The notes beneath the pieces are model-generated. The model saw nothing but the letters and a program-made list of their open reading frames with translations, did not search any database and was not told where the DNA came from. A stretch of 64,000 nt of DNA from Panacagrimonas sp. GTDB lineage: Bacteria; Pseudomonadota; Gammaproteobacteria; Nevskiales; Nevskiaceae. The stretch covers positions 54,620 to 118,619 of the forward strand of contig JBQTIX010000044.1 of assembly GCA_052387695.1 (NCBI GenBank). The letters are read 5' to 3'. Position numbers and translations under genes: made by a program. Below are positions 527 to 48,094 of this stretch, in pieces (positions within the stretch are counted from its first letter, which is position 1; every line of letters starts with the position of its first letter).

Positions 527-712
527 GGTAGTGCATCAGTATGAAATCCGTTCGCACCGAGTGGTAGCGCCGCGACAGCGGCACTGATTGCGCAGCAATG
601 CTGCGTATCGAGGTGCCGGGCGTGCCCTTGATACGCGACGCTTCCCTCGGTACGCCCGCTGCGCGGCTACTCGGGCCGAACGGAGTTCTGGAATTCAAAC
701 TGATGCACTACC
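527..712. mobile_element. MITE-like non-autonomous element, copy 1 (~186 bp) with terminal inverted repeats GGTAGTGCATCAGT...ACTGATGCACTACC; flanked by 8-bp direct repeat CCCCATCC.
   Basis: Near-identical copies at ~7489-7677 (inverted) and ~47903-48094. The termini are reverse complements. The same 8 bp (CCCCATCC) occurs immediately outside both ends, as for a target-site duplication. The ORFs the track shows here (405-698, 588-815, 598-1944) run through the repeat in all copies and are judged spurious. Confidence 0.75.
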
Positions 713-811
713 CCCCATCCTCATGCAGAGGCGGCCCGATCGCGGGGCCGTGGCCTTTTGGTCCGCTCATCCGGACAATGGCGCTCCTGTTCGCTGCCGC
801 GCTCCAGACCC

Positions 812-1996
812 ATGAATTTTCTCCGCCTCGCCGATCTCGATCTCAAGAACAAGCGCGTCTTCATCCGCGCCGATCTCAACGTGCCGCAGGACGATGCGGG
901 TCAGGTCACCGACGACACCCGCATTCGCGCCTCGATTCCCGGCATCCAGCTCGCGCTGGCCAAGGGCGCGGCAGTGATGGTGACCTCGCACCTCGGTCGC
1001 CCGACCGAAGGCGAGTTGAAACCCGGGGATTCGCTGGCGCCCATTGCCGTGCGGATGAGCGGGCTGCTGGGTCAGAAGGTGGAGCTGATCCAGAACTGGG
1101 TCGATGGCGGGTTCACCGTGAAGCCGGGGCAGGTCGTGCTGCTGGAAAACTGCCGGGTCAACAAGGGCGAGAAGAAAAACAGTCCCGAACTCGCGGCGAA
1201 GATGGCCCGGCTTTGCGACGTTTACGTCAACGACGCCTTCGGCACCGCGCACCGCGCGGAGGCCACGACGCACGCGCTGGCGATGGCCGCGGGCGTGGCC
1301 TGCGCCGGCCCGCTGGTGGCGGCAGAACTCGAAGCCCTGGGCAAGGCCCTGGGCAATCCGGCGCGACCCCTGGTCGCGATCGTCGGTGGGTCGAAGGTTT
1401 CGACCAAGCTCACCATCCTCGACTCGCTCGCCGACAAGGTCGATCAACTCGTGGTCGGCGGCGGTATCGCCAACACGTTCCTGCTGGCCATGGGGCTGCC
1501 CATCGGCAAGTCGCTGGCCGAACCGGACCTGGTGAACGAGGCGCGACGCATCATCAACAAGATGGCGGCGCGCGGCGCCTCGGTGCCCATTCCAACCGAC
1601 GTGGTCACCGCCAAGGAATTTTCCGCGACGGCGACGGCCACGGTGAAAGCGGCCAAGGATGTGGCAGCCGACGACCTGATTCTCGATGTCGGGCCCGACA
1701 CCGCCAGGACGCTGGCCGCGGCGATGGGCGAGGCGGGCACGATCGTGTGGAACGGCCCGCTCGGCGTGTTCGAATTCGAGGCCTTCGCCAACGGCACCCG
1801 CCTGCTGGCCGAAGCCATCGCCGCTTCCGGGGCGATGTCGATCGCCGGCGGCGGCGACACCGTGGCCGCCATCGCCAAATTCGGCATCGACCAACAGGTG
1901 GACTACATCTCGACGGCGGGCGGAGCGTTCCTGGAGTTTCTTGAAGGCAAGACCTTGCCGGCCGTCGCCGCGCTGGAAGCACGCGCCAAAGCTTGA
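812..1996 (+). CDS. pgk: Phosphoglycerate kinase
   Basis: ORF 758-1996; conserved start [25 protein letters not shown] at 812; PGK motifs ([28 protein letters not shown]). About 394 aa, typical for PGK. Confidence 0.95.
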
Positions 1997-4900
1997 ACGA
2001 CCAGCGTCCTGCTCCGGTGCACGTCCCCGGGCCCACTGCCTTGCGCGCGGTACTGGGCGGGGCATTTGCCAAGGGCATGGATTACGCGCGTCGCGGGCAG
2101 GTCCTGGGCGTGTGGTGGGAGACGCCCGCCGGACCCCTGGCGGCGCGTGTGCAGGGGACCGAGGACGAGCCCTACCAGTGCCGGATCACCTGGTCCGACC
2201 TGAAGGGGCGGCTGGAGGTGGAAGGTGAATGCAGTTGCCCGGTCGGATTCAACTGCAAGCACGTTGCAGCCGCGCTGATCCAGGCCAACATCCGGCCGCC
2301 ATCGGACCACCCGCCGGACGAGGCGGAGGTGCCGCCGCCGGTGCTGTCGATGCACGCGCCCGACCAGAGGATGGAGCCGGATTGGCAGCGACAGGTTCGT
2401 CAGCCCTTTCCCGGCGCGCCGCCGCGCGCCAGCCGCAGCCCGTTCGAACGGTGGAGGGATGCGCTCAAGTCCGCGGTCGAGCCGGGAAGATCGGCTGCGC
2501 CGCCACCGGATGTGCCGGAACGGTTGCTGTACCTGTTGTCGCCCGACCCCGACGTCCCGGTGCCGCGCGGGGTGCAGGTGCAGCCGGTGGTGGCGCGAGC
2601 GCTCAAGGGGGGCGGCTTCAGCACGCCCAAGCCGCTGAACAACGGTCCCGAAAGTCAGGCGCGCTACGTGACGGACGGGGATCGGCGTCTGCTGTCCCTG
2701 ATGCGGGCGCAGCAGTCGCCTGGCGCCGGATTTCGCGTCGAGCAGGACTGGGGCGTGGAGTTGTTGCGCAAACTGCTCGACAGCGGGCGTTGCCACTGGC
2801 TCGATGTGAACACCCCCGCGCTCAGGTCCGGACCGGAACGCCGCGGACAATTCATGTGGGACCTGGGCGCCGACGCGCACAGCCGGCCGCGGCTCGACGT
2901 GCCGAATTCGGCCGCGGTACTGCCGCTTGCGCCGCCCTGGTATGTCGATACGCGCGCGCAGCTCGCCGGTCCCGTCGAGACTGGACTACCGCCGGGAGTC
3001 TGCTGCCAGTTGTTGCTGGCGCCGCCGCTGGCGCCCGCCGATGCAACGCAACTGCTGGCCGATTGGGGAGCGGCGCTGGGTGAGTGGTCGCAGGCCGTGC
3101 CGGCCCCGCCGCAACCGCGGATCGACCGGCGCAAGGGAATCAAGCCGGTGCCGGTGTTCGAACTCTCGCGCACCTTGCTGCGCCGGTACTACGGGCCGGA
3201 AGAATGGTTCGACGTGGGACGGCTGAGTTTCGACTACGACGGCGTGCGCGCCCCGCCCGGCGGCGCCGACCAGGCCCTGATGCAGGTCGATGGCGATCGC
3301 GTGATCGAGATCACGCGATCGCCGGACCGCGAGAACAAGGCCAGTCAGAACCTGCGCTCGATCGGAATTCTTCCGATGCAGGACGACTACGGCCGGCCGA
3401 TGCCCTACTGGGTGCCCAATCCCACCGTCGGCCGCGCCGGATGGATCGACTTTCTCGCCGTGCAGGCGCCGAAGCTGCGTGAGAAGGGCTGGCGCATCGA
3501 GGTCGCGGAGGATTTCCCCTGGCGCCTGCATGAGCCGGATGACATCTGGGACGCAGACATCGAGGAGGGTCGTGACTGGTTTGACCTAGCGCTCGACGTG
3601 ATGGTCGATGGGACGCGCACGAAGCTGCTGCCCTTGCTGGTGGCGCTGCTCCACCAGACCTCGGACCGGCTCGACCTGCCCAGGCTCAAGGCCCTGTCCG
3701 ACGACGCTCCGGTCGTGATCCGCGACGAACACGGCCGCCTGATCCGCCTGCCCGCGGGGCGCATCAAGCCGATCCTCGGCACCCTGCTGGAGCTGTACGA
3801 CGAGCGACCGCTCAGCGCCGACGGCCGCCTGCGCCTGCCGCGCAACGCCGGCATGCTGCTCGACGGTCTGGGCGAACACCTGCGTTACTCCGGCGGCGGG
3901 ACCGTGCGCGAACTGGCGGAGCGGCTGCGCGGCGTCTCCGGCCTGGACCCGGTGGAGCCGCCCGCCGGTCTCCAGGGCGAACTGCGTGATTACCAGCGTC
4001 ACGGCCTGTCCTGGTTGCAGTTCCTGCGGCGCATGGACCTGGCCGGGGTGCTGGCCGACGACATGGGCCTGGGCAAGACCGTGCAGACCCTCGCGCACGT
4101 TCTGCTCGAAAAAGAACAAGGCCGGCTGGATCGGCCGGCGCTGGTGATCGCCCCGACCAGCCTGATGTTCAACTGGCGCCGCGAGGCCGGACGCTTTGCC
4201 CCCGCGCTGCGCGTGCTGGTGCTGCATGGGCTGGATCGCCGACGGGATTTCGAGCGCATCACCGAACACGATCTGGTGCTGAGCACCTATCCACTGCTGG
4301 CGCGCGACATCGAGGTACTGAAGGCGCAGCCCTGGCATCTGCTCGTGCTCGACGAGGCGCAGAACATCAAGAACGCCAAGTCCAAATCGGCACAACTGGT
4401 GGCGCAACTCGACACGCGGCATCGGCTGGCGCTCACCGGCACGCCGCTGGAGAATCATCTCGGCGAACTGTGGTCGCTGTTCCATTTCCTGATGCCGGGT
4501 TATCTGGCCGACGAGCGCGCGTTCCGCCGCCGCTTCCGCACGCCGATCGAGAAACACGGCGACGCCGAAGTCCGCACGCAACTCGCTCGCAGGATCGCGC
4601 CTTTTCTGCTGCGCCGGACCAAGCAGGAAGTCGCCTCGGAACTGCCGCCGCGCACCGAGATCATCCGCAGCGTCGCGCTCGAAGGCGCCCAGCGCGATCT
4701 GTACGAAACCGTGCGCGCAGCGATGCAGGAAAAGGTGCGGCGCGAGATCGAACAGCGCGGCCTGGCGCGTTCACAGATCGTCGTGCTCGATGCCCTGCTG
4801 AAACTGCGCCAGATCTGTTGCGATCCGCGTCTGCTGAAAATGGAATCGGCCAGGTCCGTGCGCGAATCGGCCAAGCTGGATTTGCTGATGAACCTGCTGC

Positions 4901-47118: not shown

Positions 47119-47161
47119 CTACATCTCTCGGTGAGATCAATCGAACCGGTGCAGACCTTCC

Positions 47162-47794
47162 CTACGCACAGAGCCTGACCGCCTTCTGGAACGCCGGTCG
47201 CGCCTCGATCCGGGCCAGGTAATCCCCGATCGCAGAAAAGCGCTCGATCGGCGCGTGGCCCTTCATGGCCGGAATCGCCTTGCCGTTGGCCAGGTGCAGG
47301 TCGTAGGCCACCAGGATGTCTGCGCCCGTGAGTTGCGCGCCGGCGACGTATTCGCTCTTCAACAGGGTCTTGTTGAGATAAGTGAACAAGGTCTCGTACT
47401 CGCCGTCGATGAAGCCCTTGAGTCCCGGCGCGTCGGTCTGCGTCATGCCGCACAGCAGGTCCATCAGGATGGGGAGCATCAGCGTCGACTCCGCCGCATG
47501 CATCCAGTGCTGGTAGGCCAGAAACTCGGCCGTTCCGGCGGCCGGACGCAGACGGCCGTTGCCGTACTTGTCGATCACGTAATCCACGATCGCGCCGGAC
47601 TCCGTGATGGTGTTCTCGCCGTCCTGGATCACCGGCGCCTTGCCCATCGGCGAGACCTTCCACAGCGACTCAGGTGAGCGGAACGTCTGCGGATTGCGTT
47701 CGTGGCGCACCAGTTCGTACTGCAGGCCGAGTTCTTCGGCGAGCCAGACGATGCGATCGGAACGGGACAGGACCAGATGATGAATCTTCAGCAT
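47162..47794 (-). CDS. Glutathione S-transferase
   Basis: MLKIHHLVLSRSDRIVWLAEELGLQYELVRHERNPQTFRSPESLWKVSPMGKAPVIQDG (thioredoxin-like GST N-domain) plus helical C-domain; 210 aa. Confidence 0.85.
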   Translation of the reverse strand: MLKIHHLVLSRSDRIVWLAEELGLQYELVRHERNPQTFRSPESLWKVSPMGKAPVIQDGENTITESGAIVDYVIDKYGNGRLRPAAGTAEFLAYQHWMHAAESTLMLPILMDLLCGMTQTDAPGLKGFIDGEYETLFTYLNKTLLKSEYVAGAQLTGADILVAYDLHLANGKAIPAMKGHAPIERFSAIGDYLARIEARPAFQKAVRLCA

Positions 47795-47902
47795 GCGACT
47801 CTCCTCGCGGGTGTTGGGGGCTGCGCGTTCTGTTGCCGCGCTGGTGAAAGTTAGCACGCCTCGCAGCGTGCCTCGAAGGGAGGTCAAGCCCCACGCAGCG
47901 TA

Positions 47903-48094
47903 GGTAGTGCATCAGTATGAAATCCGTTCGCACCGAGTAGCGCCATTGCGTAGCAATGCCGCGTATCGAGGTGCCGGGCGTGCCCTCGATGCGCGACGCT
48001 TCCCTCGATACGCCCGCTGCGCGGCTACTCGGGACGAACGGGCCGGCGCTACTCGGGCCGAACGGGGTTCTGGAATTCAAACTGATGCACTACC
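47903..48094. mobile_element. MITE-like element copy 3 (same orientation as copy 1), flanked by GCAGCGT(A/G) direct repeat
   Basis: ~95% identical to 527-712 including both termini. Confidence 0.75.

Follow-up and report, generated by a model that had tools for sequence, protein, structure and literature searches.

Several described systems share the general organisation examined here. MITEAba12 (PMC6382973) and the Sulfolobus elements SMN1 and SM3A (PMC3718332) are short, carry terminal inverted repeats (TIRs) and target-site duplications (TSDs), contain no open reading frame (ORF) and are mobilised by a transposase acting in trans. Among the insertion sequences (ISs), members of the IS1 family have ends of the form GGnnnTG and an 8-9-bp target repeat (ISfinder table reproduced in PMC10425158); a TSD of 8 bp is normal in this family, as exemplified by an ISAba3-like element (PMC6382973). 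Here, we analysed a 64-kb stretch of Panacagrimonas DNA (hereafter, the window), in which three elements of 186-192 bp were found, each having TIRs and a flanking 8-bp direct repeat. With a probability of roughly 0.88, these copies are three insertions of one non-autonomous element, a MITE of the IS1 family. The kind of element is ordinary bacterial mobile DNA; no described MITE with these termini was found in the literature searched.

Structure of the three copies

Copy 1 (527..712, plus strand, 186 bp) and copy 3 (47903..48094, plus strand, 192 bp) were read and aligned directly, and copy 2 (7490..7678, minus strand, 189 bp) gave its best alignment to both when reverse-complemented. An initial annotation of this DNA had delimited copies 1 and 3 in the same way, but its boundaries for copy 2 (7489-7677) needed correction. 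The identity over aligned columns was 96.4% between copies 1 and 3, 88.1% between copies 1 and 2, and 89.4% between copies 2 and 3, but dropped to 65-79% once the 18-nt and 24-nt indels were counted; therefore, the previously given value of ~90% is fair for the aligned positions (88-96%) only.

The interior of the copies is palindromic and non-coding, being made of repeated CCGTTCG..CCGAGTAGC and CGTATCGAGG modules, and these repeated motifs occur only in the copies. A 24-nt module, GCTACTCGGGNCGAACGGGCCGGC, is tandemly duplicated in copy 3, and copy 1 lacks that duplication. Overall, the copies form an imperfect long palindrome, which is asymmetric, with the 24-nt module doubled on one arm only. 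The predicted DNA folds have energies between -61 and -70 kcal/mol and z-scores between -6.8 and -11 (copy 1: -61 kcal/mol, z -7.6), and a search of Rfam with the copies gave no match. The interior was not found in any other sequence and is unrelated to every autonomous element seen. The copies have no transposase-coding capacity, and the ORFs touching them are spurious read-throughs; those beginning or ending within the copies lie at 598-1944 (+), 7031-7507 (+) and 47670-48080 (-), in agreement with the initial annotation. A separate REP-like 44-mer with GTAG is also present in the window.

Both ends of copies 1 and 3 carry the 14-nt TIR GGTAGTGCATCAGT without a mismatch. This had been claimed for all three copies; however, copy 2 ends in GGTAGTGAGTCAGT and GGTAGTGGGTCAGT, and its arms therefore differ at one position. 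The inverted repeat extends over ~21-23 nt, reading GGTAGTGCATCAGT[A/T]TGAA[A/T]TCC. In copy 1, the left TIR (527..549, plus strand, GGTAGTGCATCAGTATGAAATCC) and the right TIR (690..712, minus strand, with the minus-strand reading GGTAGTGCATCAGTTTGAATTCC) match at 21 of 23 positions, the first 14 being perfect. The TIRs of copy 2 are located at 7490-7510 and 7658-7678 (one mismatch between the arms), and those of copy 3 at 47903-47925 and 48072-48094. All six copy ends begin with GGTAGTG. Searching the 64 kb for the 19-nt family terminus with up to three mismatches returned exactly these six ends, compared with 0.06 matches expected.

The 8-bp direct repeats reported earlier were found at every copy. 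Copy 1 lies between two identical repeats, CCCCATCC at 519..526 and again at 713..720 (8/8 match), and copy 2 lies between GGATTCCG (7482..7489) and GGATTCTG (7679..7686; 7/8 match). For copy 3, the left repeat GCAGCGTA (47895..47902), which is now non-coding, bears the single mismatch (7/8) to the right repeat GCAGCGTG (48095..48102), which lies within the LysR coding sequence. By our own arithmetic, the joint chance of matches of 8/8, 7/8 and 7/8 is ~2e-12. No sequence consensus was evident among the targets of these three copies. The probable mechanism is that each copy keeps only the ~20-bp TIRs recognised by an IS1-type DDE transposase, placed around a lineage-specific interior; a transposase made elsewhere would bind both ends and insert the copy where the target has been cut with an 8-bp stagger, and repair would then give rise to the 8-bp direct repeats.

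The duplications also bear on the alternative named by the initial annotation, a REP-type structural element, here taken as a REP/REPIN-type palindrome that was dispersed by a RAYT tyrosine transposase or retained for its RNA or DNA structure. Such a reading could draw on the tetranucleotide GTAG at positions 2-5 of each end, the strong hairpin potential of the copies and the GTAG-bearing 44-mer mentioned above. However, REPs and REPINs are not known to generate target duplications, whereas 8-bp repeats flank all three copies; moreover, the copy ends are identical to those of ISs bearing a DDE transposase, and the palindrome is asymmetric and has no Rfam counterpart. We thus consider a REP/REPIN origin very improbable.

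The termini belong to a widespread group of IS1-family elements

The terminus GGTAGTGnnTCAGTTTGAA of the copies is conserved at the ends of very widespread single-ORF, often cargo-carrying IS1-family elements occurring in many phyla. A genome scan with GGTAGTGNNTCAGTNTGAA returned at least 120 loci, each an 8-kb block. Among the listed scan matches, all ends (132/132) read GGTAGTGnnTCAGTTTGAAwT, and a transposase of ~280-300 aa was also present in 31 of the 120 listed loci. Eighteen autonomous elements from other taxa were found to bear the same 19-20-nt ends as the window copies. These autonomous relatives are 1085-4588 bp long and have one 275-304-aa ORF, frequently accompanied by passenger genes. 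Perfect 8-bp repeats surround 15 autonomous elements (1085-4224 bp, two of them on finished plasmids) and 11 MITE-sized elements (32-817 bp) among the TSD-bounded elements with these ends; the TSD is 8 bp in the window copies as well as in 26 TSD-bounded relatives. In addition, dozens of unrelated MITE-sized derivatives share the IS1-type terminus and, as the autonomous members do, have perfect 8-bp target duplications. The termini of the window copies are identical to those of autonomous IS1-family elements with 8-bp TSDs.

The family assignment was examined with three of the transposases. Their best match, although a weak one, was NCBIfam NF033558, with 51-59 bits (below the cut-off of 100) and E-values of 1e-13 to 1e-16, and two of the three matched Pfam PF03400 with 25.1 and 25.8 bits (cut-off 24.1). 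The product name given to these transposases by both NCBI PGAP and JGI is 'IS1 family transposase'. An hhalign comparison with E. coli InsB gave an E-value of 2.6e-5 and an alignment of 118 columns in which the D, D and E motifs of both proteins coincide, and the transposases carry the IS1 signature DE-W / TDG-Y / ER-NL-R..FSK. Weaker matches besides IS1 were to IS6, IS1595 and IS481; the IS1595 family (NF033547) was rejected because its single match among the three proteins, at 25.8 bits, fell below the cut-off of 75 and was weaker than the IS1 match. The insA/insB' pair with its -1 frameshift and the length of 740-1180 bp typical of classical IS1 were not found in the autonomous relatives; their single ORF, their length of 1085-4588 bp and their passenger genes exclude classical IS1 as a subgroup but are no objection to the IS1 family as such. 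The window ends, GGTAGTG, fit the IS1-family consensus GGnnnTG, and the 8-bp TSD fits the 8-9 bp of this family.

These data do not bear out the parent initially proposed, i.e., an IS256-, ISL3- or IS66-type element, which had been argued from the 8-bp duplications. TSDs of 8 bp are compatible with the IS256, ISL3 and IS66 families, and so are those of the window copies; however, an 8-bp TSD is equally normal for IS1, whose end motif the copies carry, the autonomous elements found to share these termini all encode an IS1-type transposase, and no match to the models of the other three families in Pfam or NCBIfam was obtained. We regard such a parent as contradicted by these results and very improbable. 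In contrast, the initial recognition of a MITE family, with the TSDs as evidence of transposition, is supported by the TIRs, the TSDs, the missing coding capacity, the termini common to autonomous ISs and an orthologous locus (L125, described below) without the element.

Genomic context and insertion of copy 3 at a LysR gene

Copy 1 is situated in the 567 nt of intergenic DNA that separate pgk (812-1996) from a divergent trpG/pabA-like gene on the minus strand, whose start is near 245. Copy 2 is likewise flanked by two divergent genes, encoding a TetR protein (6687-7328, minus strand) and a TonB-dependent receptor (7741-10146). Copy 3 is found where the 3' end of a LysR gene (48090-48992) is followed by the start of a GST gene (47162-47794); both genes lie on the minus strand and are thus co-oriented, with copy 3 upstream of the GST gene. 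The context labels given earlier (upstream of pgk, upstream of the TonB receptor and LysR/GST intergenic) were amended accordingly. The accompanying statement that all copies are intergenic holds for copies 1 and 2; for copy 3, the right TIR overlaps the LysR ORF and gives its stop codon, the TAG at 48090..48092 (minus strand) coming from the MITE terminus (G-GTAG-TG), as seen from the ORF end and translation.

The five nearest LysR orthologs are 302 aa long and 87-92% identical. An alignment with locus L125 showed that copy 3 has changed the C-terminus of LysR from the ancestral ...CTLRGA* to ...CTLR*, and in-silico removal of copy 3 together with one repeat gave ...ECTLRGA* and 302 aa, as in these orthologs in length. 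At L125, LysR is followed by GST with a 91-nt spacer and no element, the intergenic DNA being too diverged for a base-precise empty site. In the ortholog comparison suggested by the initial annotation, copy 3 is thus absent from L125, whereas around copies 1 and 2 synteny is not preserved in the sampled relatives, of which the nearest are ~10% diverged. The family terminus was also absent from ~60 kb of three related Panacagrimonas/Nevskiaceae genomes. Copy 3 thus behaves as an insertion, and its absence from relatives at 87-92% protein identity makes this insertion comparatively recent. Furthermore, four short-read contigs that are 100% identical to the window stop within copies 3 and 2, at a distance of 28 or 38 nt from the edge. 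Such a pattern of contig ends is expected from a repeat that breaks an assembly, and implies further copies. Three copies were observed directly, and the family probably comprises more.

A question raised from these findings is whether the copies can still move. No transposase of the terminus-sharing type was found in the window (tblastn with three family transposases, nothing below E 0.05), and none from Panacagrimonas was present among the best 120 homologs; the copies could therefore be fossils, that is, genuine IS1-type MITEs that became immobile after the lineage lost its transposase and now serve as neutral or mildly useful spacers. The mutations in two of the three TSDs and in the TIR of copy 2 are in line with this possibility, and present-day activity is the only point that separates it from the explanation favoured here. 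However, the identity between copies 1 and 3 is 96%, both have perfect 14-nt TIRs, and their TSDs are intact or nearly so. The comparatively recent insertion of copy 3 likewise argues against fossil copies, which we consider possible but rather unlikely. For the MITE of the IS1 family favoured here, a partner transposase presumably exists or existed in this Panacagrimonas lineage.

The positions of the copies could also suggest a domesticated regulatory cassette, in which a structured insert, acting for instance as an insulator, by stabilising RNA or by binding a protein, alters the expression of pgk, the TonB receptor gene and the GST gene. All three copies lie within ~60-110 nt of a start codon, two of them in divergent promoter regions, and the repeated motifs of the interior are confined to the copies. 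On the contrary, the copies and their borders showed neither sigma-70-like promoter nor intrinsic-terminator patterns, the relatives lack the element and hence gave no sign of conservation at orthologous loci, and intergenic DNA is where insertions of any kind survive by default. Promoter and terminator patterns and conservation in the sampled relatives thus yielded no evidence of a regulatory function, and we judge such a cassette improbable. Any effects of the copies on pgk, the TonB receptor, LysR and GST would probably be incidental to the insertion of an IS1-type MITE rather than a selected function.

Significance and comparison with known systems

For annotation, these results explain three spurious ORFs and an apparently short LysR protein. 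They also explain the breaks at the copies in short-read assemblies of this population and put the repeats in the correct IS family. In addition, a lineage-specific MITE expansion is documented in uncultured Panacagrimonas, and one extremely conserved IS1-type terminus is seen to underlie many unrelated MITE families from soil and freshwater bacteria. This MITE family opens no new question in transposition biology. A more far-reaching and speculative proposal, which we hold to be doubtful, is that the parent belongs to a largely undescribed, phylum-spanning IS1 subgroup characterised by a near-invariant 20-bp terminus, a dinucleotide at positions 8-9 that varies but is the same at both ends of any one element, cargo of the XRE-ImmA/IrrE and Panacea antitoxin type, and repeated independent MITE families; the Panacagrimonas family would then be currently active and would have remodelled a regulator C-terminus and two divergent promoter regions.

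The single-ORF, cargo-carrying group of the IS1 family is presumably the ISMhu11-like group of ISfinder (0.9-4.6 kb). Like its members, the window copies have GGTAGTG ends (GGnnnTG) and an 8-bp target duplication; unlike them, they are ~190 bp long, lack a transposase and have an unrelated interior. Classical E. coli IS1, a 768-bp element whose insA and insB' are joined by a -1 frameshift, resembles the relatives described here in its family-level end motif, in its 8-9-bp duplication and in the aligned catalytic motifs. These relatives differ from it in possessing a single ORF and in their 20-bp TIR, which is distinct and much more strongly conserved, and their identity to it is ~28%, confined to the catalytic domain. 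REPINs, or REP doublets, are likewise hairpin-forming, intergenic and GTAG-containing. They are moved by RAYT tyrosine transposases, whereas the window copies have 8-bp TSDs and DDE-type IS ends. With MITEAba12 and SMN1/SM3A, finally, the window copies share the logic of a short, ORF-less element with TIRs and TSDs that relies on a trans-acting transposase, although the parent families and sequences differ.

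Anatomy of the three copies

Direct reading of the sequence placed three non-coding elements in the window. Copy 1 (527–712) lies between a trpG/pabA-like gene (minus strand, start near 245) and the divergent pgk gene (812–1996); copy 2 (7490–7678) between a TetR gene (6687–7328, minus strand) and the divergent gene of a TonB-dependent receptor (7741–10146); and copy 3 (47903–48094) between LysR (48090–48992, minus strand) and the co-oriented GST gene (47162–47794). The initial annotation had copies 1 and 3 at these coordinates but set copy 2 one base too far left (7489–7677). 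The perfect 14-bp terminal inverted repeats (TIRs) that it ascribed to all copies hold for copies 1 and 3, which carry the inverted terminus GGTAGTGCATCAGT, but not for copy 2, whose ends read GGTAGTGAGTCAGT on one side and GGTAGTGGGTCAGT on the other. The inverted repeat of the copies extends, imperfectly, to about 23 nt. As first claimed, an 8-bp direct repeat brackets every copy, namely CCCCATCC/CCCCATCC for copy 1, GGATTCCG/GGATTCTG for copy 2, and GCAGCGTA/GCAGCGTG for copy 3. When up to three mismatches were allowed, the 19-nt family terminus matched exactly the six element ends in the window (0.06 expected from shuffles). A seventh near-match to the 14-mer (24017–24030) is inside a coding region, does not fit the longer consensus, and was therefore dismissed as a chance match.

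The pairwise identities of the copies are 96.4%, 88.1%, and 89.4% over aligned columns, with indels set aside, which bears out the earlier figure of about 90%; an 18-nt indel also separates the copies, as does a tandem duplication of a 24-nt internal module. Interior motifs are confined to the copies (for CCGAGTAGC, seven matches versus 0.27 expected), and each copy folds into a long imperfect hairpin (z-scores −6.8 to −11). An Rfam search of the whole window at gathering thresholds returned tRNAs only, with no family matching the copies.

Insertion of copy 3 at the end of a LysR gene

The LysR ORF ends ...CTLR-TAG, and this TAG sits within the terminus of copy 3, so the description of all three copies as intergenic is not quite accurate. 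When copy 3 and one repeat were deleted (reconstructed empty site ...GAGTGCACGCTGCGTGGGGCTTGA...), the reading frame continued as ...GAG TGC ACG CTG CGT GGG GCT TGA, giving a 302-aa LysR ending ...ECTLRGA*. The five nearest LysR orthologs (87–92% identity) are all 302 aa long and end RGR, RSQ, RSR, RAR or RAP. On one of these five ortholog contigs (L125), LysR and GST follow in the same order with a 91-nt spacer that lacks the element, and the last LysR codons line up one by one with those reconstructed. The single mismatch between the copy 3 duplications is on the repeat that turned non-coding.

The proposed comparison of orthologous loci thus found copy 3 absent at L125; for copies 1 and 2 it yielded no empty sites, because the relatives sampled lack synteny around them. 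The Pgk loci of three relatives (L142–L145, 90–91% Pgk identity) showed no homology to the flanks of pgk in the window, and the family terminus was absent from about 60 kb of three related genomes. In addition, four short-read contigs that match the window at 100% identity break off within copies 3 and 2, three of them 28 nt and one 38 nt into the element, as is characteristic of a repeat with more copies than those in the window. The break point in copy 2 is in sequence that copies 1 and 3 do not have, so further copies of the copy-2 subtype probably exist.

Two divergent promoter regions are about 195 bp longer, LysR is two residues shorter, and a 200-bp structured spacer now precedes GST; these effects on neighbouring genes are most simply by-products of insertion. 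Scans for sigma-70 promoters and intrinsic terminators in the surroundings of each copy had no match within the copies or directly beside them, and exact-protein look-ups for Pgk and GST of the window returned none on record.

The termini belong to an IS1-type family

A scan with the terminus GGTAGTGNNTCAGTNTGAA, using one genome per species, yielded at least 120 loci, those listed coming from Acidobacteriota, Alpha-, Beta- and Gammaproteobacteria, Verrucomicrobiota, Chloroflexota, Actinomycetota, Bacteroidota, and others. All 132 of the 132 ends among the matches listed read GGTAGTGnnTCAGTTTGAAwT, indicating one family rather than chance matches. Of the 120 8-kb blocks among the matches listed, 31 have an ORF of about 280–300 aa from a single protein family beside the end. 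This protein family scores best against IS1 models, with Pfam PF03400 close to threshold and NCBIfam NF033558 under its curated cut-off despite E-values of 1e-13 to 1e-16. Homologs on finished plasmids are named 'IS1 family transposase' by PGAP, and a protein search gave at least 8000 clusters, many with this name and PF03400. Moreover, a 12-sequence profile aligned with E. coli InsB over 118 columns (E 2.6e-5), pairing the motifs DEiW with DEqW, TsDGhkaY with TDGwplY, and VERqNLtmR..FSK with IERhNLnlR..FSK. No IS256, ISL3 or IS66 model matched, and the transposase type contradicts these initially proposed parents. The ends and 8-bp target-site duplications (TSDs) in the window agree with the IS1 family descriptors (ends GGnnnTG, direct repeats of 8–9 bp; PMC10425158), and an ISAba3-like IS1 member has a GGTGGTG terminus and an 8-bp TSD (PMC6382973).

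The three copies therefore behave as an IS1-family MITE and pass the corresponding tests: they have TIRs and TSDs, their termini are also those of IS1-type elements which produce 8-bp TSDs, and a gene end was altered by one of the insertions. A REP-type element, against which the initial annotation had weighed its own reading, is contradicted in its REPIN form by the TSDs and by termini that are those of a DDE insertion sequence. Movement of an IS1-family MITE would depend on an IS1-type DDE transposase acting in trans, which would bind the ends of about 20 bp and make a staggered cut of 8 bp for integration; the interior is probably cargo-free filler with small duplications.

No family transposase was found in the window, and no Panacagrimonas homolog among the best 120 of at least 8000 clusters (query, a betaproteobacterial transposase). 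The element interior was absent from the 120 genome loci listed, and the element had no blastn match among PLSDB plasmids. A metagenome scan with the TIR and subterminal pattern returned 14 loci, none with the element interior; these are other MITE families, sharing the ends and 8-bp TSDs, or solo ends. On viral contigs the interior pattern had no match, and the CA-type terminus occurred on three, none of which (0/3) had a transposase. Literature on the terminus and on IS1-derived MITEs yielded nothing specific.

Other repeats in the window

Three tandem intergenic units of about 101 nt (58420–58720, 83% matches) are each predicted to fold, whichever strand is taken, into a closed multi-hairpin structure (about −47 kcal/mol, z about −3) and have no Rfam match; an (11-nt)x3 repeat follows at 58737–58768. 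A 44-nt palindromic REP-like pair (38913–38956 and 47080–47123; 93% identical, GTCGGTTCCGCCCGC..GCGGGCTTGAACCGACCTACA, GTAG on the opposite strand) has one member adjoined by a (AACCGACCTGC)x3 repeat (38913–38956) and the other immediately downstream of GST. At 25357–25464 there is a 33-nt inverted repeat (94% complementary, 42-nt spacer), and a perfect 30-nt palindrome, (CGGGAAT)x4.3 facing (CGATTCC)x4.3 with 21 nt between, occupies 33773–33853. Just upstream of the tRNA gene at 54213–54286, 53 nt (54130–54182) are 85% identical to its 5' part, as if part of the tRNA had been duplicated or an integration had left a scar. A five-tRNA gene cluster lies at 63411–63997.

Autonomous relatives and sibling MITEs

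In a TSD survey, ends were paired within the loci listed and perfect 8-bp duplications were counted. These bounded 15 autonomous elements (1085–4224 bp), including a Hoeflea plasmid element of 4224 bp at about 34698–38921 of NZ_CP011481 and an Acidiphilium plasmid element of 2634 bp, and 11 MITE-sized elements (32–817 bp); in other paired elements the TSD was one base off. The smallest (L048:4261–4292 and L111:1854–1886, loci from other genomes) are 32–33 bp long, scarcely beyond two abutting TIRs, with perfect 8-bp TSDs. A Solimonas sp. MAG of the same bacterial family carries a different 154-bp MITE with the same termini (GGTAGTGCCTCAGTTTGAAATTCGTCATTGCGAGG...) at L007:1306–1459 and L013:4357–4510, the latter with a perfect 8-bp TSD, which indicates that the IS1-type group spawned independent MITE families within Nevskiaceae.

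TIR positions 8–9 of GGTAGTGNNTCAGTTTGAA (L012–L127) hold the same dinucleotide at both ends in 21 of 26 TSD-bounded elements, versus 24% expected from overall frequencies (binomial P about 2e-9), and differ between elements (TC, GG, CC, GC, GT, CA); in the window they are CA/CA in copies 1 and 3 and AG/GG in copy 2. This agreement could reflect co-evolution with the transposase or common ancestry, or the two ends may have been homogenised.

The autonomous relatives have a single ORF for the transposase, and most carry passenger genes (for example, L072:128–3855, L061:1250–4178, L126:61–4284, and L031:6–2204). The passengers include an HTH_3 + Peptidase_M78 (ImmA/IrrE) protein of 382–454 aa and a SocA/Panacea antitoxin-domain protein; a conserved basic ORF of about 100 aa by one end (..RPxD...ERxxIAKKAAxxRW) has no Pfam match. 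Classical IS1 has two ORFs and is under 1.2 kb, whereas neither holds for the autonomous relatives with the same ends, which match the IS1-family members that have one ORF and carry cargo, a subgroup in ISfinder naming.
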